From: Candidatus Versatilivorator vitaminiformans
Lineage (GTDB): Bacteria; Acidobacteriota; Terriglobia; Versatilivoradales; Versatilivoraceae
Assembly (NCBI GenBank): GCA_027493295.1
Contig: JAPVWS010000481.1
Location: 1-38,905 of the forward strand
DNA: 38,905 bases
Reading direction: 5' to 3'
Positions 21,029-36,124 of the stretch are shown piece by piece (position 1 is the first letter of the stretch; the number at the start of each line of letters is the position of its first letter). The position numbers were made by a program, and so were the translations under genes. The notes beneath the pieces were generated by a model. The model had not been told where the DNA came from and searched no databases. It saw nothing but the letters and a program-made list of their open reading frames with translations.

Positions 21029-21673
21029 ATGGCAGCTCAAATCAAGTGGAGCCGTCGAGAGGGCATACTGATTGCCGCACCGATCGGTCGTATCGATGGA
21101 AACAACTACATTGAAGTCCAGAATGCCCTGGAAACCGGAATCGATCCCGACGAACGCGCCATGATCCTGGACTTTGCCCAATTGGGCTACATCAGCAGCG
21201 CCGGTCTGCGCGTTTGCCTGATCATCGCCAAGAAATTCAACCCGGCCGGCAAGGCCTTCGGGATCTGCAATCTCTCCGAATCGATCCGAGAGATTGTCAC
21301 CGTGAGCGGCTTTCACGGGATCATGTCGATTTACGATTCGCAAAGCGCGGCCATCGAAGCCATCACCGGGAAGGCCGACGTCGGCGGGGATGAGGCAGCA
21401 GCACAAGCATCCTCGACCATACCGATGCGCGACTCTGTCGATTTCGACATCATCGGCGAAAACATCCAGCACATCGCCAACTTCACCATCGAGAAATACG
21501 AGTACCAGAATGACCGCACTCTTACGCTCAAGGAGCGGGAGGCGGTGGTTGCGGGAATCACCAATGCCCTGTGGCAGTATATTGAGCGCTTGAAGACCCG
21601 GCGCAAGCAGCTTCTGACGGAAATGTTCAAATCCGCCGAAACAGTTCTCGAACGGGTCGTCGCAAAATCGTGA
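21029..21673 (+). CDS. STAS-domain protein (anti-sigma-factor-antagonist-like) with ~95-aa helical C-terminal extension
   Basis: SD AAAGGAG 7 nt upstream. The SpoIIAA-like core is LDFAQLGYISSAGLRVCLI...ICNLSESIREIVTVSGF. The C-terminal tail has no motif I recognise. Confidence 0.7.
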   Translation: MAAQIKWSRREGILIAAPIGRIDGNNYIEVQNALETGIDPDERAMILDFAQLGYISSAGLRVCLIIAKKFNPAGKAFGICNLSESIREIVTVSGFHGIMSIYDSQSAAIEAITGKADVGGDEAAAQASSTIPMRDSVDFDIIGENIQHIANFTIEKYEYQNDRTLTLKEREAVVAGITNALWQYIERLKTRRKQLLTEMFKSAETVLERVVAKS

Positions 21674-21687
21674 AAATGACGCCCATA

Positions 21688-21744
21688 GCGGCCACGGCGG
21701 GATAGTCTGCCAGGATGCAGATCTGGTTGAAATCCCGTGGCCGC
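21688..21744. terminator. Possible bidirectional stem-loop between convergent genes
   Basis: GCGGCCACGGCGGGA (21688-21702) pairs with TCCCGTGGCCGC (21733-21744), with one bulge and a 30-nt loop. There is no clear U-tract, so this is weak. Confidence 0.2.
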
Positions 21745-21907
21745 GCTCTTGCCAGGCTGTCCGGGGATCCTGTTTGCGGTTCGGACCGTATGGCCGGCAT
21801 GGACTTGCCCGGCGCAGCCTGCAGACCGCAAGACCGCACTATCGACACAAGTCAGAGGTTTCCTTCCTCGACCCGACGACCCCGTCAACCATTCCGGCTC
21901 GGCAGAA

Positions 21908-24415
21908 CTACAGGGCGGATTTCCGAATGTCCCTGTGAGTCAGAAAGTCGCGATAACGCGCAAAGGCGGCGTTGATGTCCTCGCGCGTCAGACCGTAGTC
22001 CCCCAGGTCGTAGCGATGCCGTGGCTCACTGCGGCGGCGCTCCGCTTGCCGGAACAGCCAGTCGTCCATTGTGTTGATCGTCCCTCGATCGAGCGGCCAG
22101 TTGAACCGCTCATAGATTGTGTGGACGACCGCCATGGGATCCTCCACCAGATCGACGTAGTTCACGTCAAACCAGCGGTGCTCCAGTTCGGAATGGCTTT
22201 CCCGGAATTGAACGGCCCTGTCCATCATGCCGCTCATGAAGGCCAACTGCTCGGCGCCGAACTCGTTCGCAGGCAGGGGCTCACTGGAAAGGGAACGTAC
22301 CCGCTCCACCAGGCTGTTCCAGGATCCCATGAACTGCGAGGGCTCGCGGTGGGTCTGGATGAACAGGGCATCCGGGTAGGTCTCGATGAGGGTTTCCAGT
22401 TCCATGAGGTGAAAAGGCATCTTGAGTAGCCATTGGCCCTGGCGCCCGGGCTCTCGCTGCCGCCGCTGCCAGGCGAAATGCTGCAGGGTGCGGCGATGGT
22501 AGGCGTAAGCCTCTCCGGAACCGTTGGCGTTCAGCCACCGGCCATATTCCGGCACGTGGAATCGAGAGGTCGTGACCCATGCCGAGAAGGCCATCCTGAA
22601 GATCGGGAAATCCTCTTCCGGTTCGTCGACGTTGAAATCGTGAATGCCCTCCAAGACCTTGAAGATGTCGGATGCCCGCAGCGCTTCCTCGGTTCGCGCC
22701 CGGCGAGGGTCCTCGGGTGTGCCCGCAACCGTAGCGTACTCATCTGTCGAGAGGACCGGCTCGGCGTACTCGTATAGCCGCAACGTCCAAAACCGCCTGT
22801 CGCGAGACATCAGCCGGTGCAGGTAGGTCGTGCCGGTGCGGTTGATGCCGACGATGAACACCGGCCGCGGGATCGGTTCCCCTTCGATCTCGGGGTGCTG
22901 CCGCCGTTCGCGGGCCAACCGTGCGTTGTTGCGCAAGAAACGGTTCATTTCAAAGGCGACGTCGCCAATCCTATCCTCCAACAGTCGCGCATCCGGTGAG
23001 TTCAGAGCTCCGACCAGTTGCTGCAGACCCTGACGCATCCACTCCGGACAGGCCGAGTCGAAGGGAACGCCCTCGTCAGCGGCGTAGCGCTCGGCCCGGG
23101 ACGTCAGGCAGTCGAAGTCCAAACGGGTTTGCGGAACCCGATACGGCCAGTCTTCCCGGTGGTCCCTGACCCACTGTCCAGTGCGTCTCAGCTTGGTCAA
23201 CATGCCCAGCCACCTGATCGGGCGCGAGCTGTCCTCGCGGATGGCGCGGTCGCAAATGGGCAGCCTGTCCTTCGGCTTGTTTTTGCTGAACCAGTACTTC
23301 CCCAAATGATCGAACACCGCCCAGTGGCCATGGAGCGGGGAATTCTTGCCGCGCGCCTGGCAGGCGCGCTTGAACGCCTCGTAGGGAACCTCGGGCCAAT
23401 AGAGCCCGAAATCGGCAGGTTCCAGGTCGTAGTGATCCAACTGCGGGTTGCAGCAATGGTAGATCGTGAAACGACGTTGGGGATTCAGAGAAATGGCCGT
23501 ACAGGCTTCGCTCAGCGCATCCACCGCTTCGTTGCTGGATCGAAAGGTGAATTCCTCGGGCAACGTTTCGGAATCGACCACCGCGGCAAACAGGCGCACG
23601 CTGAGATCCTGCTCCGGGGTATATCCCTCGCTGGACAAACCGGTTTGCGGCAGCCGAAAAATCGCCAGCGGCATACCGGCCTGTTGCGCGAACAGGAGTA
23701 CCTGCTCGGATGTCAGTTTGCTCCACGGGTAGCCGAGAAATCCCAGCGGGAACATTCTCTTCATGCTTTGGAGATCCGGTTGCATCTGGTGGTCGATGCG
23801 GCTGTCTTTGAATTCATTTGCGAAGCTGCAGAAATACTGGGGGAACACACCCATGGTCGAGGCGTAGAACAGGTGCTTGAAGCGTTTGCGCAAGCACAAT
23901 TCGAGCACGTTGCGGGTGCTGAACGTATTGACCTTGCGTATGGCGAGATAGGACGACACAAGATCGATGGAGGCCGCAAGATGATAGGCGGCATCAATCC
24001 GCCGGCAAAGGGCATCAAAATCCGCTTCGCTCAAGCCGAATCGCGTCTCGGCGACGTCACCGACTGCGACGCGTATGCGCGGCGCGAAGGATTCGTCCCA
24101 GATGCCGGCCCGCTCGAGGGCGGCGCGTATGCGTCCGAAACCGTGCTCGACGCTTTTGGCCCGGACAATGCAATGCACCAGCAGCTCGGGGTTCTGTCTC
24201 AAGAGGTCGCGCAGGAAGAAACGACCGATGAAGCCGGTAGCCCCGGTCAAGAATACCTCCCTGAAATCACTCGGAGAAACGGCGGCAGCCGGCGCCTCCC
24301 GGCTGACTGTCTCATGAACGAATCGACGCAGGGTATCGACGTCCTTCTGACAATGCCGCGGCAAATTGCCATCGAGCGGCGCCACCCTCGTGTCGGCGGC
24401 GGTTCTTTCAGGCAT
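21908..24415 (-). CDS. Bifunctional thioester-reductase (SDR/NAD_binding_4-type) - sulfotransferase fusion protein (SwfB-like)
   Basis: 835 aa with SD GGGAGGGAAAG upstream. The N-terminal half has the Rossmann motif FLTGATGFIGRF (aa 55-66) and the catalytic GYPWSK YxxxK (Y229/K233), typical of terminal reductase/fatty-acyl reductase domains. The C-terminal half has the PAPS 5'-PSB loop IVGINRTGTTYLHRLMS (aa 521-537) and a THREPSQFMGSWNS 3'-PB-like motif. Confidence 0.85.
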   Translation of the reverse strand: MPERTAADTRVAPLDGNLPRHCQKDVDTLRRFVHETVSREAPAAAVSPSDFREVFLTGATGFIGRFFLRDLLRQNPELLVHCIVRAKSVEHGFGRIRAALERAGIWDESFAPRIRVAVGDVAETRFGLSEADFDALCRRIDAAYHLAASIDLVSSYLAIRKVNTFSTRNVLELCLRKRFKHLFYASTMGVFPQYFCSFANEFKDSRIDHQMQPDLQSMKRMFPLGFLGYPWSKLTSEQVLLFAQQAGMPLAIFRLPQTGLSSEGYTPEQDLSVRLFAAVVDSETLPEEFTFRSSNEAVDALSEACTAISLNPQRRFTIYHCCNPQLDHYDLEPADFGLYWPEVPYEAFKRACQARGKNSPLHGHWAVFDHLGKYWFSKNKPKDRLPICDRAIREDSSRPIRWLGMLTKLRRTGQWVRDHREDWPYRVPQTRLDFDCLTSRAERYAADEGVPFDSACPEWMRQGLQQLVGALNSPDARLLEDRIGDVAFEMNRFLRNNARLARERRQHPEIEGEPIPRPVFIVGINRTGTTYLHRLMSRDRRFWTLRLYEYAEPVLSTDEYATVAGTPEDPRRARTEEALRASDIFKVLEGIHDFNVDEPEEDFPIFRMAFSAWVTTSRFHVPEYGRWLNANGSGEAYAYHRRTLQHFAWQRRQREPGRQGQWLLKMPFHLMELETLIETYPDALFIQTHREPSQFMGSWNSLVERVRSLSSEPLPANEFGAEQLAFMSGMMDRAVQFRESHSELEHRWFDVNYVDLVEDPMAVVHTIYERFNWPLDRGTINTMDDWLFRQAERRRSEPRHRYDLGDYGLTREDINAAFARYRDFLTHRDIRKSAL
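21911..22867 (-). other. Sulfotransferase domain of the fusion protein, approx. aa 517-835
   Basis: GxxRTGTTxL P-loop-like PAPS-binding motif and a downstream HRxPxxxxxS motif. Boundaries estimated by eye. Confidence 0.7.
23216..24259 (-). other. Reductase (R) domain of the fusion protein, approx. aa 53-400
   Basis: TGATGFIG and YxxxK motifs. Boundaries estimated by eye. Confidence 0.7.
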
Positions 24416-24458
24416 GTATTCTTTCCCTCCCTGAATATTGGAGACCCGGAACGGTGCC

Positions 24459-26231
24459 TTACATCGCTGCCGAGTGTGTGAACCGGTCTCCCTGGGCGCT
24501 CACGGCGGACCGGAACAACGCCAGGGCATCATCGATTCCATCGCCCAGGTAGCGGAATTCATCGGGTATCGACGCATGGCGCACACCGGTTTGTGCGATC
24601 AAGGCGTGCTTCTGTTTCTCGATTCCTTCCACATCCCGAACATCGTTCGAAACGGATTCCTTGAACCTCTCCAACTCGGTCGCCAAATACTGCTTGAAGT
24701 CGCCGATGGCAATCTGCTGACTGGTGATTCTTTCAAAGTGGTAGCCCAGCGCAGCCAGGCGGATCGCCTCCGGGAGCAAGCCGGGATGGTCCCTGGAGAC
24801 CTTGGCGATGAACTTGGTATAGGCCGGGATCTGCTCGGCGGAAAGTTGTCGGCGAACAGACATGATGGCCAAAAAAAGCGCGTTCCTGCTCATCGGTTTC
24901 AGCAGATGCGGGATGGGCCTGAGGTGTTCGAGCAACGTCAGGCAGCGCATGAAGTATTTCTCGAGAGTCGGGTCATAGATGGTGGTGATGACGCGGCGGT
25001 ATCCCTCCATCAATGTCTCGATATCCATCTCCGGCTTGAAGTTGAGGGCGACGTTGACACTGGTCAGGTTCAGGACGCCGTCGGCGCTGCTTCCGAAGGA
25101 CTCGTCCAATAGCCGGTTCTCCCTTTTGAGGCGATCATACAGATTCGTGTCTTTCAGAGCGTTCAACAATCCGACCATGGCCATGGGAATGCCGACTCCC
25201 TGTATAAAATCGATCTGGGCATCGAAGGCGCCCTCGTCATCATCATCCAGACCCAGGATGAATCCTCCATCGACCCGCATCCCTTTCCGTTGGATCTTGC
25301 GAACGCAGTTGAAAAGATAGTTCTCTTCCCGCTTGCTGACGTTCTGCGGTTTCTTCATCTTGCGCAACGCCTTGGGATTGGGCGTTTCGATACCCAGAAA
25401 CACGGAATTGAAACCCGCTTCAATCATGCCGTCCATCAATTCATCCAAACGGGCCAGGTTCACGCTGGCTTCGGTGAACAGGGAAAACGGATAGCCACGG
25501 GCTTTCTGCCACTCGGCAATGGCACACACCAACTTCATCGCTTCTCGCTTGTTGCCGATGAAATTGTCGTCAACCAGGAAAACATGGCTGCGCCAGCCCA
25601 GTCGATACAGCAGTTCGAATTCGTCCAGCACCTGATCCGGCAACTTTGTCCGGGCCACGCGACCGTAGAGCTTGGTAATATCGCAGAATTCACAGTCGAA
25701 CGGGCATCCACGGGAGAACTGTATGGACATGGAGTAGTAGGCCTTCATGTCGATGAGGTCGAAGCGCGGAACAGGTGTCCTGGTCACATCCGGTTTTCGC
25801 GGCTCGCGGTAGATGGCTCTGGCCGTGCCGTTTTCCAGGTCCCGCAGAAAATCGACAAAGGTCTCCTCGGCCTCATCCAGCACAAAATGGTCTACACCGC
25901 CGATCTCGCCATGATAGGTGGTGGGATAGGGACCTCCGGCCACCACGGGGATGCCGGCCCGGTTGCATCGCTGCGTTACGGTGTGCAGGGATTCCCGCTG
26001 GACAACCATGGTGGAAGTAAACACCAGGTCCGCCCACTCCAGATCGGCATCCTCCAAGGGAGCCACGTTCATATCCACGACGCGCAGGTTGTATTTCAGG
26101 GGAAACATGGCGGCGACGGTCAGCAGACCCAGAGGAGGAAAGGCAGCCTTGATGCGGAAGATCTCCAGCGCAAAATTGACTCCCCAGTAGGAAGGAGGAT
26201 ATTCGGGATACACCAGAAGCGCGTTCGGCAT
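24459..26231 (-). CDS. B12-binding-domain radical SAM protein, paralogue 2 (SwfC-like)
   Basis: Start set at MPNALL (ATG 26231, GAGG 6 nt upstream) by homology with the paralogue. It has an N-terminal cobalamin-binding-type domain (PPLGLLTVAAMFP...VVAGGPYP), CxxxCxxC as GCPFDCEFC (codons 25683-25706), and a long helical C-terminal domain of the kind seen in DUF4070-type class B radical SAM enzymes. Confidence 0.85.
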   Translation of the reverse strand: MPNALLVYPEYPPSYWGVNFALEIFRIKAAFPPLGLLTVAAMFPLKYNLRVVDMNVAPLEDADLEWADLVFTSTMVVQRESLHTVTQRCNRAGIPVVAGGPYPTTYHGEIGGVDHFVLDEAEETFVDFLRDLENGTARAIYREPRKPDVTRTPVPRFDLIDMKAYYSMSIQFSRGCPFDCEFCDITKLYGRVARTKLPDQVLDEFELLYRLGWRSHVFLVDDNFIGNKREAMKLVCAIAEWQKARGYPFSLFTEASVNLARLDELMDGMIEAGFNSVFLGIETPNPKALRKMKKPQNVSKREENYLFNCVRKIQRKGMRVDGGFILGLDDDDEGAFDAQIDFIQGVGIPMAMVGLLNALKDTNLYDRLKRENRLLDESFGSSADGVLNLTSVNVALNFKPEMDIETLMEGYRRVITTIYDPTLEKYFMRCLTLLEHLRPIPHLLKPMSRNALFLAIMSVRRQLSAEQIPAYTKFIAKVSRDHPGLLPEAIRLAALGYHFERITSQQIAIGDFKQYLATELERFKESVSNDVRDVEGIEKQKHALIAQTGVRHASIPDEFRYLGDGIDDALALFRSAVSAQGDRFTHSAAM

Positions 26232-26273
26232 GTCAAGCCTCATTGGCTGTCGCGCAAGATTCAGAGCTTTCTT

Positions 26274-28016
26274 CTACACCGCCGCCGAGCGGGCGAGGCG
26301 GTCCGCCTGAGCATTCACAGAGACCCGAAAGGACTGCAACGCAGACTCGATTCCATCTCCATAGTATCGAAAGTCTTCCGGAATCAATTGGTTGCGCGCC
26401 TGAGCTCGCACGAACAACTCCTGCCTCCGAGCTCGGATCTCCTCCACTTCCTGAACGGAACTTGAAGAGGTTTCCCTGAAAATTTCCGCCTCGGCTTCCA
26501 AAAATACCTTGAAGTCGTGGATTGCCATCTGCTGGCGGGTGACCTTTTCAAAATGGTAGCCCAATGAGGCCAGGCGAATCGCCTCCGGGAGCATTCGGGG
26601 ATGGTCCTTGGAAACGCTGGCGATAAACCTCATATAGGCAGGGACTTGCTTGGCGGAAAGCTGCCGGCGCAGGCCCATCATGTTCGCATAAAGCGCGATC
26701 TTGCTCTGAGGTTTGTGCAAGTGCGGAATGGGTGTGAGGTGCTCGAAGAACGTCAGGCAACGCTCGAAGTAGTTCTCCAGAGTCGGGTCGTAGACGCTGG
26801 CGGTCACGCGCCGGTATCCCTCGATCAACGCTTCGGGATCCATCTCCGGCACGAAGTTGAGGGCCGTGGAGGTCGTGCCGATGGAAACCTCCAATAGCCG
26901 ATTTTCCGACTGCAAGCGTCGATACAGGTCGGTTCCCTTCAGGGCGCCCAACAACCCGATCAAAGCCATCGGAATGCCGGCCTCCTGAATAAAATCGATT
27001 TGCAGATCGAACACGCCCTCATCATCCTCGTCCAGGCCCAGGATGAACCCTCCCATGACCTGCATCCCTTTCCGCTGGATGGTTCGGACGGAATTGAGAA
27101 GGTAATTGTTGTCCCGCTTGTCGATGTTCTGAGGTTTCTTCATCTTCAGCAAGGCCTTGGGATTGGGCGTTTCAATACCCACGAACACGGAATTGAATCC
27201 GGCTTCAACCATGACGTCCATCAATTCATCCATGCGGGCCAGGTTCATGCTCGCTTCGGTGAACAGGGAGAAGGGATATCCACGAGCCTGCTGCCATTCG
27301 GCAATGACCCGAAGCAGCTCCATTGCAGCTCGCTTGTTGCCGATGAAGTTGTCGTTAACCAGGAATAGTCGCCCACGCCAGCCCAGTCGATACAAGGCCT
27401 CAAACTCTTCCACCATCTGATCCGGCGACTTGGTCCGGGCCACGCGACCGTAGAGCTTGGTGATGTCGCAGAACTCGCAGTCGAACGGGCAGCCTCGGGA
27501 GAACTGAACGCACATCGAGTGGTAACTCTTCGTATCGATGAGGTCGAAGCGCGGGACGGGTGTCCGAGTCATATCCGGCTTTCGCGGCTCGCGATAGATG
27601 GCATCGGCCGTGCCGCTCTCCAAGTCACGCAAAAAGTCGCCAAAGGTCTCCTCCACCTCATCCAGCACGAAGTGGTCGACACCTTGGATCTCATCGTGGA
27701 AGGAAGTGGGGAAGGGGCCCCCCGCCACCACGGGAACGCCGGCCCGGTTGCACCGCCCGATGACGGACTGGAGGGAATCGCGTTGAACGATCATGGTGGA
27801 GGTAAACACCAGATCCGCCCAGTCCAGGTCCGACTCCTCCAGGGGAATCACATTCATATCCACCACGCGGAGGTCGTAGTGCGGCGGAAACATCGCGGCG
27901 ACGGTGAGCAGACCCAAGGGTGGGAATGCTGCCTTGATGCCCAGCATATCGAGTGCAAAATTCGCACCCCAATAGGAAGGGGGGTTTTCGGGATAAACCA
28001 GCAGAGCATTCGGCAC
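26274..28016 (-). CDS. B12-binding-domain radical SAM protein, paralogue 1 (SwfC-like)
   Basis: GTG start with SD GAAGGAG 5 nt upstream. It has the same architecture as paralogue 2, with GCPFDCEFC at codons 27468-27491. Confidence 0.85.
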   Translation of the reverse strand: MPNALLVYPENPPSYWGANFALDMLGIKAAFPPLGLLTVAAMFPPHYDLRVVDMNVIPLEESDLDWADLVFTSTMIVQRDSLQSVIGRCNRAGVPVVAGGPFPTSFHDEIQGVDHFVLDEVEETFGDFLRDLESGTADAIYREPRKPDMTRTPVPRFDLIDTKSYHSMCVQFSRGCPFDCEFCDITKLYGRVARTKSPDQMVEEFEALYRLGWRGRLFLVNDNFIGNKRAAMELLRVIAEWQQARGYPFSLFTEASMNLARMDELMDVMVEAGFNSVFVGIETPNPKALLKMKKPQNIDKRDNNYLLNSVRTIQRKGMQVMGGFILGLDEDDEGVFDLQIDFIQEAGIPMALIGLLGALKGTDLYRRLQSENRLLEVSIGTTSTALNFVPEMDPEALIEGYRRVTASVYDPTLENYFERCLTFFEHLTPIPHLHKPQSKIALYANMMGLRRQLSAKQVPAYMRFIASVSKDHPRMLPEAIRLASLGYHFEKVTRQQMAIHDFKVFLEAEAEIFRETSSSSVQEVEEIRARRQELFVRAQARNQLIPEDFRYYGDGIESALQSFRVSVNAQADRLARSAAV

Positions 28017-28069
28017 GGTTACTCCTTCCCCTGTTCCTCCATTGCCATGTCAGCCGCCCAAGACCGCCA

Positions 28070-31000
28070 CTAAACAGCGGATTCTCTCACGGTACCGGAT
28101 GCCACATCTCGCGGATGGAGAAAGTGGTCTTCTCTTGCGCTCGCAAAAACCGATGGTGCGCGGCGGGCGCGCTGCTGGACACTTTGGGCGGCATCCTCGG
28201 AAACGGCCGTATCCGCCTCGGCCGGATCGTCCTCGACATTTTCTTTTCCGTGGATGATCCCCCGTGCCAGCGACAGACAGGTGGCGGTAGTCATCAACTC
28301 GAGGGCGCTCACCCGGTAGTTGAACTGCGTCTGGATGAACGTGCCCAGCTCGGCCACCGAGATGGAGGTGAGTCCGAAGCTGGCCAGTGGCTCCTCCACG
28401 CCACCCTCCTCGTGGCCGCAGAGCTCGGCGACCTTGGCAGCAATCTGCGCCACCACGCTCTCGAGCGTCAACTCGCCCTCCACACCAGCCTTGAAGGCGT
28501 CCTGATTGTTCATCAAACGCCCGGTGCGCATGTAGTCCGGGTAGTCGGTCGTCCAGGCCGGGTGCTTGAACACGGCCGTAATCAAGTGGTCCCGATCGGG
28601 CATGGCGCGCAGGGCATAGTCGAGGTTGGCGATGGCGAAGTCGCTGCTGACCGGCGGAAGGCCCGCGGCCCTCATCATGCGCAACACGGGGAGACTTCGC
28701 GCGGCCATGCCGGCGTCGGCGACAGCGGCCATGCTGTAGGACAAGCCGGGAAGGCCCTGACGGCGGCGATAGGCCGCAAAACCGTCCAGAAATGCGTTGG
28801 CCGCGCTGTAGTTGATCTGTCCGGGATTGCCCAGGGCCGAGGCAGTCGAGGCGAACAGAACAAAATAATCGAGCGGGCAACCCTCGGTGGCCCGGTGGAG
28901 ATGGAGAGCTCCGTGAGCCTTGGGTGCGAAAACCGTTGCCATGGATTCGGCCGACAGATCGTCCAGCAAACGGTCGTCCAGCGCGCCGGCGAGGTGGAAC
29001 ACACCCTTGAGCGGCCTTTTGAGTTGCGACACGCAGCGTCGGACGTCATCTTCCACCGCCACGTCGCCCGATACGATGTCGAATTCCGCATCCTCATCCA
29101 TGTACACGAGAGCGCTCGAATGACGGACCCACTCAGTGTCCCGACGTCGCTCGGGGTCGCGGTCCATCAGGGTGATATGGCGCGCGCCCGCGGCCACCAG
29201 GTAAGGCAACAGTCGCAGTCCGAAGCCGCCCAGGCCGCCGGTCACCAGATAGGTCGCTTCGGGATCCAAAAACGGCCGCACATCGGAAACCGTGAAACCC
29301 GCATCGCCGGCAGCCTCGGGAGCTTTCAGCACCAGTTTCCCCTGGTGGCGACCGGACGTCATCAGGCGAAGGGCCTTGGCATAGTCCTTGAACGGAAAGA
29401 CGGTGACCGGAAGCGGCGGCAGCGCTCCTTGGTCGAGCAAATCCAGGCAGGACTGGGAGAGCTCGCGCGACAGATAGGGGTCATCGATCATCAGACGGTC
29501 CACGTCGATGGCAGCGAAACGCAGGTTCTTGCGGAAGATGCGCAGACCTAGGGCGTTGTCGGCGTAGATGTCGACCTTGCCGATTTCGCAATGCCAGCCC
29601 CCCGGGCGCAGGGCCTGCAGACAAAGTTCAACCTGGCGTCCGGCCAGTGAGTTCAGCACGACGTCGACGCCCTCGCCTGCGGTCGCCGCCATCAGGTCGT
29701 CATGCCAGGCGAGGCTGTGCGAATCGAAAGCCGCTCGCACGCCCAGCGACAGCAATTGCTCCCGCTTGTCTTCACTGCCGGCAGTGGCGTATATCTCTGC
29801 TCCCACATGCTTGGCCAGCGCGATGGCGGCCTGTCCGACGCCGCCCATGGCCGAATGGATGAGGACTCGCTGGCCCTTGCGCAGGCGGGCCAGGTGAATC
29901 AGGGAATAGTAGGCGGTAACATAGACCGACAGAACCGAGGCGGCTTCTTCCATGCTCAGGCGGTCCGGCTTCGCGAAAACGAGGGATTGGTTGACCACGA
30001 CGCGATTGGCGATGCAGCCGCCCTGTATGAACGCTACATCGTCACCGGCGCGGCAACCCCGCACCTCCGACCCGACGCGTCGGACGATCCCGCTTCCTTC
30101 CATGCCGACTTCACGCCCGAGGGCCGAGCGCTCATAGGCCGAAGCCGGCAACAGGCCCAGCGTGACCATGACGTCGCGAAAATTGAGGGCGGCTGCCGTC
30201 ACTTCGATCTCCACGTCGTCCGGACCCAACGGTGGGAGCTCGCAGGTTTTCATCTCGAGACCGGCGATCTGCCCCGGATTGTCCAGAGTGAGCCGGTAGG
30301 CAAGCTCATCACCCGCGGATACCCGGGAATACCGCTCTGTAATGTCAACCCACCTGGGCGCCCACAAGCGGTTCGCCCGCACGGCCAATTCGCGCTCGCG
30401 CAAATCGCACCGAGCCAGCCAGGCCATCGTTTCCAAATCGCCGGGATCACCCAGGTCCACCAGGCGAAAATCGATCCGGGCTTCCTCGTCGATTTCCATG
30501 GCCATGCTGCGAACCGCTCCCCACAGCGCACTCCCGCGCGGATTGTCCACATCGAGCACGGTTCCGCGCGTCACCACGGTCAATCGGCACCAGTGGTTCG
30601 CATTCTCCACCCTGTAGGAGACCAGAGCCTGGACAAAGGCAACAAAACGCGACACCGCCTTTTCCCCCGTCGGGTCTTCTGGTTCCTCGCCACAAAAGAA
30701 GTCGATGGCGCTCAGGTCGGCCGCCTGCGGCCACGTTTCGAGCAAATGGAGCGCGTTGGCGGCGAGAGCTTCATCGGGGACCGGATACGCATCCGGCGCA
30801 TCGAGCAGGGCCACCCAGTCCGAGGCCCAGCTTCCCGGCTCCCCGAGCACCCATCGCGAGCCCGAGGGCTCCGTGGAGTCGGGAATTTCCGCGCGGGACT
30901 GCGGCGCCTGCAGCAGGGTCTTGCGCTGCCCGGCTCGAACGACAGTCCAACCGGCGACGGGCCGGATGACTTCGCCCTCGCCATGAGAGACCAGGGCCAA

Positions 31001-34000
31001 GCCGCCGGCCACCGCCAATCGGCGCGCCAGTTCCCATTCCTCCGGCCGGACCGCCCCGCCATCCCCATGCATAAAAATGATTTCGGCGCTACCCGGACGC
31101 AGCAGACCCGCATCCAGTTTCGGTTGAGCAGCCGGGTCGAGGCGCTCGAAACGCAAGGCGGCATCGCGTTGACCGTAGGCGTCGTAGTGAGCCCAGGCAC
31201 TCTCTTCGGTATCGCCGACCAGCCAGAACTCGGTCTGTGAGCCGGCGTTCGAGAGATGGTCGATGCACTGATCGAGAAGGGTCTCCTCCGGCTCCCGGCA
31301 GCCCGCGAACTCGACCACGTGACAGGCGTAGGGTTCGCCCTGTTCCGGCCTTTCGAGGGCGGCAATCAGGGCAGCGGGTTCGATCTCGCCGTCAGGAAGT
31401 CTGTCGGCAAGCCGTTGGCCAGCGGAAACGAACTTGGGCTGCCAGGATATCCGGTGCTTGCTTTCGGGCAGGTCGTTCCATCGCGGATTGGAGGTGAAAT
31501 AGGTGTATTCGCCGATATGGGCAACGAGGTCTCCGGTCGCGCTGTCGTAAAGACTGACGCTGCCGCCGGACCGTTCGCCCCGGCGAACGGAATACTGGCC
31601 CCGCTCGTTGGCATCCATCCAGTCGTCGCGGGGCTTGGTCACGTGACAGGTGATCCGCGGGCCGGAGGGCGGGCGAAAGAAGGTCACCCCTTCGGCGCGC
31701 TGGGGGATGGCAAACAGGTCGGCGGCGGTCAGCAAATGGTACAGAAAGATCTGCAATGCCCCGTCGAACAAGGGAGGACACGAGACGTAGCCCTCTTCCC
31801 GACCCGTCGTCCATAGCTCCTCATCCATCTCGACGTCGAAGAGATAAGCCTTCGATACCGTATCCACCAAAACGCGTTGGATGGTCCTGAAAAAGGGACC
31901 GTACTGGAACGTCTCGCTAAGGACCGCTTCCAGGCGCTCGTAGAAATTCCGGTCGTCCGCGAGAAACGAGGGCTTGAAGTGGGTCGTATCGATGTTCGCC
32001 AGCCGGCACGGTACCTCCACCGCATGGTCGTCGCCCAGCAGGCGCACCTTCCCGCGGCAGTGCAGCTCACTCTTCGCGTCAACGTCGTAGCGCCGGGAAG
32101 AAATGGTGAAGGTCCATTCGTCCGGAGCCGTGGTCACCGGTTGCAAGTCCGTTTGCAGGCGTACCGGCGTCTTGGGAATGGGGCAGGGCTGGAGGAACTC
32201 TATCACCTCGAAGCAGGCCGGAACGCCCCCCAGGGCTTCCAGGATCAGTTCGATGTAACCGGCCCCCGGCATGATCGCCGCATGGTGGACGCGGTGGTCT
32301 GCCAGCCAGGGAAAGTCCGTCTCGGAAAGCCGCCCCTCGAAGAGCAGGTGATCGACAGGAACCTTGTGTCCGACCAACGGCCCATGGGAGTACTCGCCCT
32401 GTCGGACAAACATCTCGTTGTCGCACAGGATATCCATGGTGGCCTGCTCTTCTCTCGGATGGCCCGGCAGCAGATGGGCGACCGGCTCCGGCCGCGGATA
32501 CTGGGCGGCGAAGTCCAGATCTACGCCAGCCATGAATAGCGCACCCAGAGCCTGGTTGAAGCCGAGGCACACATCGCTGTCTCTCATCAGAGTCGGAATA
32601 CAGGCCGGCACCGGCACACTGCATTCCAGGCACTGCGCGATGGTGGTTTGCAGGGCGCTGTGCGGTGCGATTTCCAGCACCACGTCGGGTCGATATTCCC
32701 GCCGGACGGTTTCCATGGCAGCCGCGAAACGCACCGGCTGGCGAATATTCGACCACCAGTAGGCGTTGTCCAATCGCTCTGTCTGCACGCCGGTCACCGA
32801 GGAAATGAACGGCAGGTCGGCGTCGAAGGCACAGGCGTCGAGAAAGGACAGGGCGGCCAGCGCGTCGTCCTTGATCGGGTTCATGGCGGTGGAGTGGAAG
32901 GCGATATTGCCCGGCAGCAACTGGTTCTGCAGTTTGCGTCGGTCCAGCTCCGCCATGATGGGCCGCAGGGCGGCTTCCTTGCCGCAGATGACGGTGTTGG
33001 CCGGCGCGTTCTCGCAGGCGATCTCCACTCGGGTCGGTCCTTCCTCGGGCCGGAAGGGAACGTCCAGCGTTTCGAGCATTTCCTCCACGCCTGCCCGGTC
33101 GAGGCCGACCGCCAGCATGCGGCCCGAACCCGCAATGCGCTGTTGCAGGGTGGCACGGTGAAAAACCAGTCGGGTGGCGTCTGCCAACGACAGCGCCCCG
33201 CAGGCGTAGGCTGCAGCGACCTCGCCGGAGCTATGGCCGACCACGCAGTCCGCATGGACTCCCCACGTCTTGAGCAATTCCACCAGGGCGCACTGGATCA
33301 TGAAAATGACCGGCTGGGCCAACTGGACTTCATCGAGTTCCTCCTGGCCGGCCGAAAAACAGGCATGGCGGAGCGATCTGTCCGAGTGCTCTCGCCAGTG
33401 TTCCTCAATCGCATCGATTACGCGGCGGAAAACGGGGTGGGCGTCGTAAAGTGCGCGGCCGCAACCGGCCCACTGCGTGCCCTGCCCGGCGAACACCAGG
33501 GCCACCCGCCGCTCGCTCTCATCCACCGTGGCCACCGGCGCTGGGCCTTCGATGAAGAGGTCAAGCGCCTCGACCAGTTCTTGCCGGTTGCGCACCGCAA
33601 AGGAGGTACGCGCAGCGAAGTGGGTCCGGCGGCGGCTGAGATTGCCGGCCAGCGTGTACAGATCCATTTCCGACTCGCCCAAGGCTTCGCGCAACTGCTG
33701 CGCACTGCGCGTCAACAAGCCGGAGGTGCGGGCCGACAGGGGAATCATGTGGCCGGCTTCCGGCGCCAGCGCAACCGACCAGAGCCGCGGCTGCGCAGGG
33801 CGGTATTCCCGCACCACGCAGTGCCCGTTGGCGCCGCCAAAGCCGAACGAATTGATGCCGACCAGGACAGGAGGTTCGGGAAAAGGCTCACACGTCGTCT
33901 GCACCTGCATGGGGCAGTTCTCGAAATCGATCTCGGGATTCGGCACCAGGTAGTTCTTCGAAATCGGCGCGAAGGTGCGCCGCTGCATCATCAACACGAC

Positions 34001-35146
34001 CTTGAGCAGAGCGCAATGGAAGGCGGCGGCTTCCATGTGCCCTACATTGCTCTTGACACTGGAAATTCTCAGCGGCACCTCCCGGTCGAAACCACCGAAC
34101 GCCTCGTTGATGGCGGCTCCCTCAATGCGGTCGCCCACCACGGTACCGGTGGCATGGGCCTCAATGTAGTCGAATTCTCCCGGTTGGTGGCCGGAACGAG
34201 CGCACGCCAGGCGCATCAGATCCGCCTGCGCGTGGCGGGTCGGGGCGGTGATGTAACGCCCCTGAGCCAGGCCGCTGCTGCCGTCGGCAGCCCCGGCCGC
34301 ATTGACTGCCGTTGCCTCCACCACGGCGTGTATCGGGTCCCCGTCTCGCTCGGCCGCTTCCAGGGGCTTGATCGCAAAGACGAATGCCCCTTCCGAGCGC
34401 ATGTAGCCGTTGGCTTCCGCGTCGAAGGAGTGGCACTTGCCGTCCGGGCTGATGACGCCCAGGGCATTGAAGGCAGCGCTGAGCCGGGCCGTCCCCAAGT
34501 AATTTACGGAGGCGACGATGGCTTGCTCGCAATCGCCGCACTGGAGTGCGTTCACCGCGGCGTTCAATGCGGTGAGGCTGGCCGAACAAGCCGTGCAATA
34601 GGTGGTTGACGGCCCCATCAAGTTGAAGTGGTAGGAAATGCGATTGGCCAGCATGGCCAGGCTGATGCTGGTAACGTCAAACGGACCGGCACCGCGCAAT
34701 GGACGCCAGTTCGCCACCGGGGGCGTCTGCGCGCCGACAAACACTCCGGTAAGACTGTTGCGCAACGAATCCAGTTCCCAGCCGCTCCGCTCGCAGGTCT
34801 CCCAGGCGCACATCAACAGCATTCTTAGCTGCGGGTCCGTCGACAACACTTCGTGCTGTGACAGCCCGAAGAGACCGCGATCGAACAGCTTCTCCCCGTC
34901 GTCGCGGATCAGCCCCTCGAAGGGGCTGGCGAAGCGACCCGGGCCGGAGAATCCGCCAACCGGCTGATAGCCTCTTCCGCAGCGGTCGGTGACCGGCTCC
35001 TGGACGATCTCGCGTTGACTGAGCAGACGCCAGAAGTCGTCGTCGGTCTTGATCCCTCCCGGCATCCGGTAGGCATATCCGACGATGGCAACGGCGTTAT
35101 CGGAACTGGCGGAGTTCATGGCTGCGCACGGACCTCCATATTCCAT
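28070..35146 (-). CDS. Single-module, fully reducing type I polyketide/fatty-acid synthase, KS-AT-DH-(MT-like, degenerate)-ER-KR-ACP (SwfA-like)
   Basis: 2358-aa ORF. KS has TACSAS (Cys187, codon 34586-34588), HATGT and NVGHMEAA. AT has GHSSG (Ser639, codon 33230-33232) and an IAFHS malonyl-type motif. DH has LADHRVHHAAIMP and DGALQ. ER has HSAMGGVGQAAIALAK. KR has TGGLGGFG, LDD and YSAAN. ACP has FGLTSIS (Ser2261, codon 28364-28366). There is no TE, R or C domain. The start could be ATG 35146 or ATG 35119. Confidence 0.92.
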   Translation of the reverse strand: MEYGGPCAAMNSASSDNAVAIVGYAYRMPGGIKTDDDFWRLLSQREIVQEPVTDRCGRGYQPVGGFSGPGRFASPFEGLIRDDGEKLFDRGLFGLSQHEVLSTDPQLRMLLMCAWETCERSGWELDSLRNSLTGVFVGAQTPPVANWRPLRGAGPFDVTSISLAMLANRISYHFNLMGPSTTYCTACSASLTALNAAVNALQCGDCEQAIVASVNYLGTARLSAAFNALGVISPDGKCHSFDAEANGYMRSEGAFVFAIKPLEAAERDGDPIHAVVEATAVNAAGAADGSSGLAQGRYITAPTRHAQADLMRLACARSGHQPGEFDYIEAHATGTVVGDRIEGAAINEAFGGFDREVPLRISSVKSNVGHMEAAAFHCALLKVVLMMQRRTFAPISKNYLVPNPEIDFENCPMQVQTTCEPFPEPPVLVGINSFGFGGANGHCVVREYRPAQPRLWSVALAPEAGHMIPLSARTSGLLTRSAQQLREALGESEMDLYTLAGNLSRRRTHFAARTSFAVRNRQELVEALDLFIEGPAPVATVDESERRVALVFAGQGTQWAGCGRALYDAHPVFRRVIDAIEEHWREHSDRSLRHACFSAGQEELDEVQLAQPVIFMIQCALVELLKTWGVHADCVVGHSSGEVAAAYACGALSLADATRLVFHRATLQQRIAGSGRMLAVGLDRAGVEEMLETLDVPFRPEEGPTRVEIACENAPANTVICGKEAALRPIMAELDRRKLQNQLLPGNIAFHSTAMNPIKDDALAALSFLDACAFDADLPFISSVTGVQTERLDNAYWWSNIRQPVRFAAAMETVRREYRPDVVLEIAPHSALQTTIAQCLECSVPVPACIPTLMRDSDVCLGFNQALGALFMAGVDLDFAAQYPRPEPVAHLLPGHPREEQATMDILCDNEMFVRQGEYSHGPLVGHKVPVDHLLFEGRLSETDFPWLADHRVHHAAIMPGAGYIELILEALGGVPACFEVIEFLQPCPIPKTPVRLQTDLQPVTTAPDEWTFTISSRRYDVDAKSELHCRGKVRLLGDDHAVEVPCRLANIDTTHFKPSFLADDRNFYERLEAVLSETFQYGPFFRTIQRVLVDTVSKAYLFDVEMDEELWTTGREEGYVSCPPLFDGALQIFLYHLLTAADLFAIPQRAEGVTFFRPPSGPRITCHVTKPRDDWMDANERGQYSVRRGERSGGSVSLYDSATGDLVAHIGEYTYFTSNPRWNDLPESKHRISWQPKFVSAGQRLADRLPDGEIEPAALIAALERPEQGEPYACHVVEFAGCREPEETLLDQCIDHLSNAGSQTEFWLVGDTEESAWAHYDAYGQRDAALRFERLDPAAQPKLDAGLLRPGSAEIIFMHGDGGAVRPEEWELARRLAVAGGLALVSHGEGEVIRPVAGWTVVRAGQRKTLLQAPQSRAEIPDSTEPSGSRWVLGEPGSWASDWVALLDAPDAYPVPDEALAANALHLLETWPQAADLSAIDFFCGEEPEDPTGEKAVSRFVAFVQALVSYRVENANHWCRLTVVTRGTVLDVDNPRGSALWGAVRSMAMEIDEEARIDFRLVDLGDPGDLETMAWLARCDLRERELAVRANRLWAPRWVDITERYSRVSAGDELAYRLTLDNPGQIAGLEMKTCELPPLGPDDVEIEVTAAALNFRDVMVTLGLLPASAYERSALGREVGMEGSGIVRRVGSEVRGCRAGDDVAFIQGGCIANRVVVNQSLVFAKPDRLSMEEAASVLSVYVTAYYSLIHLARLRKGQRVLIHSAMGGVGQAAIALAKHVGAEIYATAGSEDKREQLLSLGVRAAFDSHSLAWHDDLMAATAGEGVDVVLNSLAGRQVELCLQALRPGGWHCEIGKVDIYADNALGLRIFRKNLRFAAIDVDRLMIDDPYLSRELSQSCLDLLDQGALPPLPVTVFPFKDYAKALRLMTSGRHQGKLVLKAPEAAGDAGFTVSDVRPFLDPEATYLVTGGLGGFGLRLLPYLVAAGARHITLMDRDPERRRDTEWVRHSSALVYMDEDAEFDIVSGDVAVEDDVRRCVSQLKRPLKGVFHLAGALDDRLLDDLSAESMATVFAPKAHGALHLHRATEGCPLDYFVLFASTASALGNPGQINYSAANAFLDGFAAYRRRQGLPGLSYSMAAVADAGMAARSLPVLRMMRAAGLPPVSSDFAIANLDYALRAMPDRDHLITAVFKHPAWTTDYPDYMRTGRLMNNQDAFKAGVEGELTLESVVAQIAAKVAELCGHEEGGVEEPLASFGLTSISVAELGTFIQTQFNYRVSALELMTTATCLSLARGIIHGKENVEDDPAEADTAVSEDAAQSVQQRARRAPSVFASAREDHFLHPRDVASGTVRESAV
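28247..28474 (-). other. PKS acyl carrier protein (ACP) domain, approx. aa 2225-2300
   Basis: LASFGLTSISVAELG contains the phosphopantetheine Ser2261. Thr replaces the usual Asp before the Ser. Confidence 0.75.
28697..29263 (-). other. PKS ketoreductase (KR) catalytic subdomain, approx. aa 1962-2150, B-type (LDD)
   Basis: YLVTGGLGGFG, HLAGALDDRLL, SxxxxxxxxxxNYSAAN. Confidence 0.8.
29321..30304 (-). other. PKS enoylreductase (ER) domain, approx. aa 1615-1942
   Basis: MDR-type fold with LNFRDVM and the NADPH motif HSAMGGVGQAA. Confidence 0.8.
30887..31429 (-). other. Methyltransferase-fold-like but apparently SAM-site-degenerate insert between DH and pseudo-KR, approx. aa 1240-1420
   Basis: The spacing of beta-strand-like segments recalls class I MT motifs I, II and III: HVVEFAGCREPE, TEFWLVGDTEE, AEIIFMHGDGG and LAVAGGLALV. 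The GxGxG loop is replaced by AGCRE. Confidence 0.4.
31502..32404 (-). other. PKS dehydratase (DH) domain, approx. aa 915-1215
   Basis: The HxxxGxxxxP variant is H951-RVH-H-AAIM-P960. GYVSCPPLFDGALQ supplies the DxxxQ motif. Confidence 0.75.
32537..33508 (-). other. PKS acyltransferase (AT) domain, approx. aa 547-870, malonyl-type
   Basis: FAGQGTQW, GHSSGE and IAFHS (xAFH rather than YASH). Confidence 0.8.
33812..35098 (-). other. PKS ketosynthase (KS) domain, approx. aa 17-445
   Basis: The Cys-His-His triad motifs are intact (C187, H331, H370). Confidence 0.85.
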
Positions 35147-35235
35147 CCCAGGTACTGCAATCCCCTCCGGTTGATCCCGACAGGTGACAGGTAGTCACCC
35201 GCGGTCGCCCTGCCCTTCCCCGTCGATACACGGTT

Positions 35236-35265
35236 ATATTACCGCACCAATGACAGACAATCCAA
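35236..35265 (-). promoter_or_regulatory. Candidate sigma70-type promoter upstream of the PKS operon
   Basis: On the minus strand, TTGGAT (35265-35260), an 18-nt spacer, then TAATAT (35241-35236), about 90 nt upstream of the PKS start. Confidence 0.3.
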
Positions 35266-35334
35266 CCTGGACGACGATCTGCTCCAGGGTTCTGTCTCAG
35301 CGTCAATCTGCGGCTCCCATGCCGGGATTCCGGC

Positions 35335-35598
35335 CTATCTCTTTTCGGTCAGCCGGCCGGACAGGTACTTGTGGATGACGCTGGACAAAAGTGTCTGATA
35401 GAAGATCCCTTCTTCCCTGGCCCTTGAGTGAGCAAGGTTGAAGTCACGCTCGGTTACGCGCAAATTCACCCGCTTGGTCTTGTTAAAGGTATTGCGAGCC
35501 GACCGGCGGGCTATCTCGATTTCGCGTTCAGCATCGGGAGTGGAGCGCAACTCTCCCCTTTCGAACCGATTCAGAATGTCACGTTCTTCCACACTCAA
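35335..35598 (-). CDS. CopG/RHH-type antitoxin (BrnA-like)
   Basis: 87 aa. ...FERGELRS....E.....A......K.KRVNLRVTERDFNLAHSRAREEGI.YQTLLSSVIHKYLSGRL is the pattern of CopG-family antitoxins paired with BrnT-like toxins. Its TTG start overlaps the upstream toxin-remnant stop (TTGA). Confidence 0.7.
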   Translation of the reverse strand: MSVEERDILNRFERGELRSTPDAEREIEIARRSARNTFNKTKRVNLRVTERDFNLAHSRAREEGIFYQTLLSSVIHKYLSGRLTEKR

Positions 35599-35768
35599 TG
35601 GGTCTTACACTTTGGTTGCCTCCTCCGATAGTCTCTCATCGCCTTCCGGCTGGGAACAATCGTCCTCAGCAAGCGAGTGCCGTCGGTCTGAATCACGAAG
35701 GGCACGAGGTAGATGTACTCGTCGATCTCCACAACGTAGATCAACTGTCCCGGGTAGCGATCCTGGTT
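35595..35768 (-). pseudogene. N-terminally truncated toxin-gene remnant (BrnT/RelE-superfamily-like C-terminal half)
   Basis: A 57-codon open frame follows a TAA and has no ATG: NQDRYPGQLIYVVEIDEYIYLVPFVIQTDGTRLLRTIVPSRKAMRDY.... The ...VV.I..Y.Y.VPFV....G...L.TI.PSRKA...Y pattern matches the C-terminal half of small toxins encoded upstream of CopG antitoxins. About 35-40 N-terminal residues are missing. Confidence 0.5.
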
Positions 35769-35786
35769 TTAATGCGGAAAGTCAAG

Positions 35787-35993
35787 CTATGACGACAACC
35801 TGCGGAATTCTTCAATCCGGACTTCGGCATCCTTCAAAGGGTCTTCCACAACGCTGAAGTATTCTCGGATCGCAGATTCAATATTTGCGAGGGCTTCCGC
35901 CTCCGTCTTTCCCTGAGACCAACAACCGGGCAAGCCGGCTGCCGACACACTGCAACCCTCGTCAGACTTGTGAAGGGCAATTTTGTACCTCAT
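35787..35993 (-). CDS. HicB-like (UPF0150) antitoxin-family protein, no adjacent hicA
   Basis: 68 aa from ATG 35993, with SD AAGGAGG upstream. MRYKIALHKSDEG.SVSAAGLPGCWSQGKTEAEALANIESAIREY is a typical HicB N-terminal domain. The longer 107-aa track ORF merely reads through the tRNA gene. Confidence 0.7.
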   Translation of the reverse strand: MRYKIALHKSDEGCSVSAAGLPGCWSQGKTEAEALANIESAIREYFSVVEDPLKDAEVRIEEFRRLSS

Positions 35994-36034
35994 GGGATCC
36001 TCCTTGAGGTTGTGGGCTGGAAGCGTCTTCAACT

Positions 36035-36124
36035 TGGCGGAGGCGGTAGGATTCGAACCCACGGTACCCGTCAAGGTACAACGGTTTTCAAGACCGCCGC
36101 AATCGACCACTCTGCCACGCCTCC
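36035..36124 (-). tRNA. tRNA-Ser (anticodon UGA), type II with long variable arm, CCA encoded
   Basis: Folded by hand. The acceptor GGAGGCG pairs with CGCCTCC. The anticodon stem is GCGGT/ACCGT around the loop CTTGAAA. The variable arm is 18 nt. The T arm is GTGGG-TTCGAAT-CCTAC, followed by discriminator G and CCA. It is closely parallel to E. coli tRNA-Ser(UGA). Confidence 0.95.

Follow-up and report, generated by a model that had tools for sequence, protein, structure and literature searches.

The swf (sponge-symbiont widespread FAS) clusters, described by Della Sala et al. in 2013 (PMC3908369), are defined by three genes: swfA for a fatty acid synthase/polyketide synthase (FAS/PKS) with the domain order KS-AT-DH-ER-KR-ACP, swfB for a reductase-sulfotransferase (R-ST) fusion, and swfC for a B12-binding radical SAM (rSAM) enzyme. 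The loci known in 2013 were those on two Plakortis simplex fosmids, pPS11G3 and pPSA11D7, and the poribacterial POR_0547-0550; phosphopantetheinylation of the ACP (acyl carrier protein) domain by Svp was the sole activity demonstrated, and the authors hypothesized that the cluster makes an alkyl sulfate, which may carry methyl groups (PMC3908369). Similar clusters were reported in metagenome-assembled genomes (MAGs) of Acidobacteriota already in 2022 (PMC9426513), and in those of Nitrospirota, Latescibacterota and Tectomicrobia (PMC9426513, PMC10227082), the Tectomicrobia/Tectimicrobiota locus being called orthologous (PMC10227082); these later papers still call the swf product unknown (PMC9426513, PMC10227082). 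Here we analyse a locus of this kind in contig JAPVWS010000481.1 (assembly GCA_027493295.1) of the acidobacterium Candidatus Versatilivorator vitaminiformans, positions 1-38,905 of which we refer to as the window: four minus-strand open reading frames (ORFs) spanning 21908-35146, which encode a synthase, two rSAM paralogues and an R-ST fusion.

On its gene content and motifs, we have very little doubt that the locus belongs to the swf family. It shares with the clusters of 2013 the three gene types, the domain order of SwfA, the R-ST architecture of SwfB and the CX3CX2C motif of SwfC, and with the poribacterial operon the order A-C-B. SwfA has HATGT for HGTGT at aa 331, as do 59 of 59 homologues, and exact copies of the swf motifs QCALVEL (aa 618), GHSSGE (aa 637) and IAFH (aa 748), which show little or no variation across the same set. 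At aa 104 it reads DPQLR where the published variants read DPQ(I/V)R, the second Q of DPQQR being replaced by a residue that is hydrophobic but neither I nor V; this position is V in 46 of the 59 homologues, M in nine and L in three. The window differs from the 2013 clusters in its DPQLR, in its acidobacterial host, in the downstream genes for a fused STAS-helical protein and a major facilitator superfamily (MFS) transporter, and in having two tandem swfC genes where the published loci have one or none. The cassette adds one more member to a family that is already known, though uncharacterised, and does not represent a new type of system. A preliminary description of this stretch, made from its sequence alone, had given the swf gene set as a PKS, a reductase plus sulfotransferase and an rSAM enzyme, with phosphopantetheinylation alone shown and the metabolite unidentified, and agrees with the 2013 paper throughout. 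It had also stated that no bacterial cluster is tied to alkyl sulfates, and close homologues were to be free of any link to a characterised product; the searchable open-access literature yielded neither such a cluster nor a product assignment for swf after 2013. New here are a clade-specific duplication of swfC, the methyltransferase-like (MT-like) and pseudo-KR region of SwfA, SwfA-SwfB fusions, the STAS-helical companion and an exchange of cassettes.

The four genes are separated by 53, 30 and 43 nt. The second gap becomes 42 nt if swfC2 begins at ATG 26231, the start that outside gene callers choose and that is homologous to the start of swfC1, and not at the upstream ATG 26243, which is also open (594 aa); with the former, the spacing of 53, 42 and 43 nt given in the preliminary description is reproduced. 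The Shine-Dalgarno sites it had seen at the downstream genes were found as purine-rich motifs before genes 2-4 (GAAGGAG before swfC1, GAGG before swfC2 and GGGAGGG before swfB), and its domain assignments were each confirmed when the four proteins were checked with Pfam hidden Markov models. The start of swfA is ambiguous, M1 or M10. Scans of 20500-36500 for promoters (three promoter-like sites vs 3.8 expected) and terminators (16 terminator-like sites vs 13.7 expected) were uninformative. In an NCBIfam scan all scores of the four proteins were sub-threshold, so that they fall in no curated equivalog.

Table 1. Features of the swf locus and of the remainder of the window (positions in the window; aa, residues of the encoded protein).
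Feature	Position	Strand	Description
swfA	28070-35146	-	2358 aa; predicted iterative mono-modular type I FAS/PKS, KS-AT-DH-(MT-like)-pseudoKR-ER-KR-ACP
SwfA KS	33803-35098	-	aa 17-448; Cys in TACSAS, HATGT, NVGH, DPQLR
SwfA AT	32519-33496	-	aa 551-876; QCALVEL, GHSSGE, IAFH
SwfA DH	31487-32380	-	aa ~923-1220; His in LADHRVHH...PGAGY, Asp/Gln in DGALQ
SwfA MT-like Rossmann domain	30896-31459	-	aa ~1230-1417; from AlphaFold model and Foldseek
SwfA pseudo-KR structural subdomain	30347-30862	-	aa ~1429-1600; from PDB profile search and Foldseek
SwfA ER	29324-30289	-	aa 1620-1941; GGVGQAA NADPH motif
SwfA KR	28718-29257	-	aa 1964-2143; GGLGGFG, Lys in APK, Tyr in YSAAN
SwfA ACP	28262-28447	-	aa 2234-2295; Ser in FGLTSIS invariant
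swfC1	26274-28016	-	580 aa, GTG start; B12-binding + Radical_SAM + DUF4070 (Pfam)
swfC2	24459-26231	-	590 aa from ATG 26231; paralogue of swfC1
swfB	21908-24415	-	835 aa; thioester reductase fused to sulfotransferase
SwfB thioester reductase	23345-24256	-	aa 54-357; TGATGFIG, YPWSK
SwfB PAPS-type sulfotransferase	22088-22864	-	aa 518-776; PAPS loops NRTGTT, THREP
STAS-helical protein	21029-21673	+	214 aa; STAS aa 1-109 (Pfam) + ~70-aa helical hairpin; conserved Ser in YISSAGL
MFS transporter	19007-20590	-	14-transmembrane-segment type; Pfam MFS_1/TRI12 (DHA2-like)
Ankyrin-repeat protein	18055-18747	+	230 aa; hydrophobic, signal-peptide-like N-terminus
tRNA-Ser(TGA)	36035-36124	-	0.9 kb upstream of swfA
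ORF between tRNA-Ser(TGA) and swfA	35787-35993	-	HicB-like antitoxin (Pfam 3.1e-06)
ORF between tRNA-Ser(TGA) and swfA	35335-35598	-	weakly CopG/BrnA-like
Na+/sulfate-symporter-family (DASS) gene	5340-6764	-	~15 kb from swf
Xan_ur_permease-family gene	6751-8511	-	~15 kb from swf

By Pfam, SwfA comprises ketoacyl-synt (7.7e-53), Acyl_transf_1 (1.3e-66), PKS_DH_N/PS-DH, ADH_zinc_N, KR (4.5e-52) and PP-binding domains and has neither a thioesterase (TE) nor an R domain, in agreement with the earlier view of a single module of 2358 aa with a full reducing loop and no release domain. NCBIfam gave only sub-threshold matches to Pks2/MAS-type PKSs, and the best PDB matches for the whole protein were mycocerosic acid synthase (MAS) and animal FAS. 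The catalytic residues of KS, AT, DH, ER, KR and ACP are invariant or nearly so among the 59 SwfA homologues.

Between DH and ER lies a region (aa 1222-1606, including the ~300 residues that separate DH from the pseudo-KR) in which Pfam found no match at E<=10. Searched against the PDB, a profile of 33 SwfA family sequences had a sole match here, the pseudo-KR of 8g7w, and PF22953, in line with a pseudo-KR, was found on fragment homologues. In an AlphaFold (AF2) model of aa 1195-1624 (mean predicted confidence, pLDDT, 80.7), Foldseek matched the modifying regions found in PsoA, in LovB and in the FASs of insects and humans, as well as free-standing class I SAM methyltransferases and the C-methyltransferases of CurJ/DszA; the pseudo-KR part matched KR structures. 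As modelled, the modifying region has the layout DH-(MT-like)-pseudoKR-ER-KR of animal FASs and highly reducing PKSs. SwfA resembles animal FAS and MAS-like PKSs (2vz8/2vz9, 9d2y, 5bp4) in being a single, fully reducing and, as predicted, iterative module, and animal FAS also in its MT-like domain and pseudo-KR between DH and ER, but differs from them in lacking a TE, in its predicted release by a separate R-ST and in its distinct KS and AT motifs. Motif I of the MT-like domain reads hhExAGxRxP in 59 of 59 homologues and never GxGxG, and the domain is probably a pseudo-methyltransferase; the degenerate motif does not correlate with the presence or absence of swfC across the 59. Because this in-line domain has no SAM glycine loop, methyl branches would more likely come from SwfC.

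The sequences themselves show which domains are present, that the catalytic residues are intact, that the genes are under selection and syntenic, and that fusions exist; beyond this we infer iterative formation of a saturated chain, four-electron reductive release, O-sulfation at C1 dependent on 3'-phosphoadenosine-5'-phosphosulfate (PAPS), and C-methylation by SwfC1 and SwfC2. SwfA, activated by a phosphopantetheinyl transferase (PPTase) encoded elsewhere, would iteratively elongate a short acyl starter with malonyl units, with full reduction in each round, to a saturated, presumably long-chain acyl-S-ACP. Since SwfA has no TE, release of the chain would fall to SwfB, whose R domain, a MxaA-like short-chain dehydrogenase/reductase (SDR), would act in trans and take the thioester with NAD(P)H to the aldehyde and on to the primary alcohol, and the Stf-type ST would then move sulfate from PAPS to the C1 hydroxyl, giving a long-chain alkyl sulfate. 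For SwfC1 and SwfC2 the most likely role is C-methylation of the chain at unactivated carbons, either at two different sites or two times at the same site, and the STAS-helical and MFS proteins may serve as regulatory, carrier or export accessories. We lean towards this alkyl-sulfate pathway with a confidence modestly better than even. Predicted in the preliminary description too, it is a supported reading but not a new one, being the published hypothesis of 2013 (PMC3908369).

Several points weigh against it. No swf product has ever been detected, and heterologous expression followed by mass spectrometry, proposed in the preliminary description, had in essence already been tried in 2013, when a complete cluster was expressed in E. 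coli BAP1 and yielded no new metabolite; the authors of that work also remarked that alkyl sulfates are not among the lipids known to be widespread in sponges (PMC3908369). Two-electron and four-electron reductases are indistinguishable by sequence (bioRxiv 10.1101/2023.05.23.541938). The AT domain itself is borne out by Pfam, but its specificity, earlier given as malonyl-type, is ambiguous because GHSSGE is atypical (PMC3908369). Inactivity of the MT-like domain, though probable, is not provable by sequence. Finally, SwfC scores below every curated rSAM cutoff, so that its presumed chemistry is not fixed by family.

Regarding this last point, both paralogues have the B12-binding, Radical_SAM and DUF4070 domains (Pfam) and the CX3CX2C motif as CPFDCEFC, in keeping with the two B12-binding rSAM paralogues described before. 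They share 70% aa identity, and a neighbour-joining tree built from 55 SwfC sequences has the C1 and C2 clades as sisters that comprise solely these Acidobacteriota, which argues for a lineage-specific tandem duplication with both copies retained; dN/dS (the ratio of nonsynonymous to synonymous substitution rates) is 0.17-0.18 for swfC2 against three close relatives (L002-L004). In one of these, L004, the first swfC comes from another lineage, being 78% identical to window C1 where the remaining three genes are 93-94% identical, and by the tree and these identities the copy is a replacement by a different SwfC lineage. The best NCBIfam scores of SwfC, 50-62 bits vs cutoffs of 250-775, place it in no curated rSAM family, and its weak matches are spread over the PhpK, HpnR and KedN5 methylases, the BchE cyclase, HpnJ, a ladderane-cluster rSAM and the AprD4 dehydratase. 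PDB matches were likewise weak: the uncharacterised rSAM 9ccb, then AprD4, and only third CysS (1e-05). These scores would suit enzymes that are not methyltransferases and instead catalyse another radical reaction on the lipid, for example one that couples carbons or closes a ring, desaturates the chain or rearranges it, leading to an unusual carbon skeleton. We consider this unlikely, although of the alternatives it is the one that fares best, since B12-binding, rSAM and DUF4070 domains together are typical of class B methylases and in the phylogeny of 2013 SwfC fell among methyltransferases, with HpnP as its closest neighbour (PMC3908369). Methylation is, on this architecture and phylogeny, the most likely chemistry of SwfC. 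The architecture is that of the lipid methylases HpnP and HpnR, but the substrate of SwfC is presumably an acyl or alkyl chain and not a hopanoid, and at ~51-54 bits vs a cutoff of 650 SwfC is not an HpnR orthologue.

SwfB proved to be the reductase-sulfotransferase fusion anticipated earlier, with NAD_binding_4 (aa 56-292, 5.7e-47) followed by Sulfotransfer_3 (aa 518-776, 1.6e-33) by Pfam and the TIGR01746 domain (2.5e-55) by NCBIfam. Across 74 SwfB homologues there is little or no variation in TGATGFIG, YPWSK, NRTGTT, KMPFH and THREP. The best PDB match of its R domain was MxaA (4u7w, 1.9e-36), ahead of carboxylic acid reductase (4.7e-15). MxaA is a four-electron reductase whose product is a primary alcohol. 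Like the R domain of MxaA and the thioester reductase (TR) of TgPKS2, both of which release the chain reductively as a primary alcohol, that of SwfB has the SDR fold with TGxxGxxG and YxxxK; it differs from both in residing in a separate protein that would act in trans and in its fused ST. The apicomplexan TR reduces an acyl thioester to the primary alcohol in a four-electron reaction (bioRxiv 10.1101/2023.05.23.541938). With MxaA the nearest solved relative and the apicomplexan TR a four-electron enzyme, reduction by SwfB probably goes, by analogy, to the alcohol. The ST region matched 2zq5 (2.3e-36) and 2z6v (1.1e-30), both titled "putative uncharacterized protein" in the PDB, which we take to be the mycobacterial sulfotransferases Stf1 and Stf9.

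An exhaustive HMMER search for the R-ST didomain among 1.84 billion representative sequences showed that it also occurs at the C-terminal end of single-chain bacterial synthases of ~3180 aa (P0263, and also P0267, P0275 and P0273). P0263 (3179 aa, at 8001-17540 of contig L087) is KS-AT-DH-ER-KR-ACP-R-ST by Pfam and carries HATGT, QCALVET and IAFH. Its contig is Bacteroidota-like, with a Por_Secre_tail gene of the type IX secretion system type and an adjacent gene for an ACPS/Sfp-type PPTase at 17585-18334, and no swfC was seen near P0263 on it. This fused form of SwfA and SwfB suggests an extension of the family, possibly outside sponge symbionts. R-ST also terminates giant apicomplexan PKSs, such as those of Rhytidocystis and Gregarina. 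The terminal R-ST of coccidian and gregarine PKS/FASs is 30-35% identical to SwfB over ~800 aa and has the YPWSK, NR(S/T)GTT, KMPFH and HRDP motifs, but the synthases that bear it are eukaryotic and multimodular, with canonical DPQQR, HGTGT, GHSLGE and HAFH. We know of no rSAM partner of these apicomplexan synthases, and to our knowledge their product, too, is unknown. Because SwfA has neither TE nor R domain, and because R-ST ends both the single-chain fusions and the apicomplexan synthases, we regard it as the likely release module for the SwfA chain; the fusions are the strongest sequence-level evidence supporting R-ST as a two-step off-loading unit acting on the SwfA ACP.

How far reduction proceeds, and what becomes of the sulfate, can be seen in two other ways, each rather improbable and neither better placed than the other. 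The R domain might stop at the aldehyde after two electrons, the ST sulfating another hydroxyl, left by a skipped DH or ER step, or an unrelated acceptor, to give a sulfated hydroxy-aldehyde or a derivative of it. The indistinguishable sequences of the two reductase types (bioRxiv 10.1101/2023.05.23.541938) and the reductions that iterative PKSs may skip (PMC3908369) leave room for this, but bacteria and apicomplexans alike have R and ST in one covalent chain, which favours consecutive action at the same carbon. Moreover, the nearest solved R domain is that of the four-electron enzyme MxaA, and the catalytic residues of DH, ER and KR are intact and invariant.

Sulfation might alternatively be transient, the alkyl sulfate at C1, or else a hydroxy intermediate that bears the sulfate, providing a leaving group for elimination, for alkyl transfer or ether formation, or for cyclisation, so that the end product would be an alkene, an ether or another non-sulfated lipid. 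A precedent, cited by the swf authors themselves, is the ST-TE of CurM and the olefin synthases (OLS), and a non-sulfated product would fit with alkyl sulfates not being known as widespread in sponges (PMC3908369). CurM/OLS and swf have in common a PAPS-dependent ST in PKS chain termination. However, the CurM/OLS ST sulfates a beta-hydroxyl and the TE then decarboxylates and eliminates to the alkene, whereas swf has no TE and has an R domain ahead of an ST that is nearer to the mycobacterial Stf type. No TE follows the ST, none being present in SwfA, SwfB or the conserved neighbours across 80 loci, and A, B and an optional C alone are conserved, with no other partner; the PDB search at E<=0.001 gave no match of the SwfB ST region to the CurM or OLS ST, so that it looks like a stand-alone sulfating enzyme and not a CurM-type one; and in the fused synthases R-ST is the extreme C-terminus. 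We retain reduction to the alcohol and sulfation at C1 as the favoured route.

For SwfB, over 120 cluster representatives were found with an identity of 65% or higher, and relatives were found in 155 species-level genomes of GTDB. We surveyed the loci of the best 80 of these 155 (labelled L001 etc.), all of them MAGs and together covering about ten phyla; several bear names in the style of sponge studies (RHO, IRC, SB06xx, Langseth, Poriferihabitaceae). They include Acidobacteriota (Terriglobia, Ca. Versatilivorator), at 90-94% identity to the window, and Latescibacterota, Nitrospirota, Tectimicrobiota (window SwfB being 76% identical to that of MAG L012), Binatia, Gemmatimonadota, Opitutales, Rhodothermales, Alpha- and Gammaproteobacteria and Ca. 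Poriferihabitaceae; the first four phyla are also the swf carriers known from the literature (PMC9426513, PMC10227082). In tblastn searches with the four window proteins, the A-(C)-B cassette was syntenic in at least 72 of the 80 species loci, which bears out the conserved synteny that the preliminary description had proposed to look for. The order is A-C-B in 44 of the 80; A-B, with swfC not within reach, in 16, L028 and L058 being of this type; A-B-C, or A-B with C inverted, in eight; C-A-B in one; and A-C-C-B in four (L002, L003, L004 and L021), to which come further loci of the window's own species (L081-L084) and, probably, the partial locus L001. With ~20% of cassettes having no swfC, A and B form the core of the cassette and swfC is an optional tailoring gene.

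In comparisons of the window with L002-L004, dN/dS is 0.15-0.25 for all four genes, which are thus under purifying selection. Degraded forms occur elsewhere: a Nitrospira MAG (L017, 6692-9940) has swfA in fragments beside an intact swfB, and a Bryobacterales MAG (L054) has swfB alone. That the window cluster is itself a decaying or silent relic, or a housekeeping fatty-acid synthase, is nearly excluded by the selection data: such copies and the fruitless heterologous expression (PMC3908369) would fit a relic, but the four ORFs are intact, their dN/dS is low and their catalytic residues are invariant, and a dedicated R-ST release is incompatible with acyl-ACP supply to phospholipids.

Flanks and swf genes disagree in their similarity to the window. 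Compared with 15000-35400 of the window, L021 and L026 have flanks of 87-90% nucleotide identity but swf genes of 74-80%, and L002 and L004 show the reverse, with swf genes at 92% and flanks at 84-89%; despite its divergent swf genes, L021 is 90-92% identical in aa to the window in both swfC. This disagreement indicates mosaic exchange, in which the cassette or parts of it appear to have moved among related Acidobacteriota at a fixed locus. We saw no compositional sign of recent transfer: GC content at third codon positions is 0.72-0.77 in the swf genes, within the 0.63-0.82 of the flanking genes, and the rSAM genes owe their lower total GC to the amino-acid composition of their products.

Apart from the cassette, all-vs-all ORF clustering identified no gene conserved in all 80 loci, which agrees with the statement of the 2013 authors that flanks differ among swf loci (PMC3908369). 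One candidate, a 142-aa "conserved ORF" (component 3), was rejected as an antisense shadow of the small helical-domain gene. That domain belongs to the STAS-helical protein, whose gene is convergent with swfB in the window; in other phyla the STAS domain and the hairpin are encoded by a pair of small neighbouring genes immediately upstream of swfA. With tblastn, at least one of the two halves was detected in 36 of the 80 loci, several of which end at a contig edge there, with 42-63% identity across phyla (among them L005, L008, L012, L015, L019, L025 and L027, at about 300-1000). With an AF2 model of pLDDT 82.6, Foldseek ranked SpoIIAA/RsbV anti-sigma antagonists first and, at lower rank, SLC26 STAS domains and the YchM STAS:ACP complex. 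The protein is not mentioned in the 2013 description of swf (PMC3908369). An exclusive tie to swf was ruled out by 41%-identical homologues in other contexts; the association is real though not exclusive, and the gene is probably an accessory of swf. One of the non-swf homologues sits by an APS-kinase (adenosine 5'-phosphosulfate kinase) fragment, a P450 and a sulfotransferase. The association of the MFS gene is weak: it adjoins swf in 11 of the 80 loci, in Acidobacteriota and Latescibacterota, with copies 41-49% identical, and its product is a possible candidate exporter for the swf product.

Taken further, the cassette could be the first pathway by which bacteria make primary alkyl sulfates with long, methyl-branched chains, an anionic and surfactant-like lipid class made by symbionts of about ten phyla in sponges, which would exchange the pathway as a three-gene module; the second SwfC of this clade would add an extra methyl, or a gem-dimethyl or tert-butyl-like terminus, and the STAS-helical protein would be a hitherto unrecognised partner that couples the synthase ACP, or the supply of PAPS or sulfate, to production. 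We put this forward tentatively, judging it somewhat less probable than not as a whole. swf belongs to a pair of PKS families that are considered both ubiquitous and specific to sponges, and its product is still unknown thirteen years on; alkyl sulfates, if that is what they are, would be a detergent-like lipid class missed by standard lipid work-ups, and a candidate symbiosis factor or chemotaxonomic marker. The window does not answer the product question, but the comparisons may make it more tractable through the minimal A-B cassettes, the single-chain fusions that have a PPTase gene beside them, the probable pseudo-methyltransferase domain, the likely cobalamin requirement of SwfC, E. coli BAP1 being a host that makes no B12, and the recurrent STAS-helical accessory protein.

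Among the other features of the window, no PAPS-synthesis genes were seen in the ORFs scanned with Pfam; the Na+/sulfate-symporter-family and Xan_ur_permease-family genes lie far from swf (Table 1). No cognate toxin genes were seen by the HicB-like and CopG/BrnA-like ORFs upstream of swfA, and the stretch formed by these and tRNA-Ser may be the remnant of an integration hotspot. The secreted ankyrin-repeat protein of the preliminary description is present, with its signal-peptide-like N-terminus, and would fit a host-associated lifestyle. In the near-identical contig L081 the ankyrin gene is called at 314 aa, and its 3' end may vary by strain.

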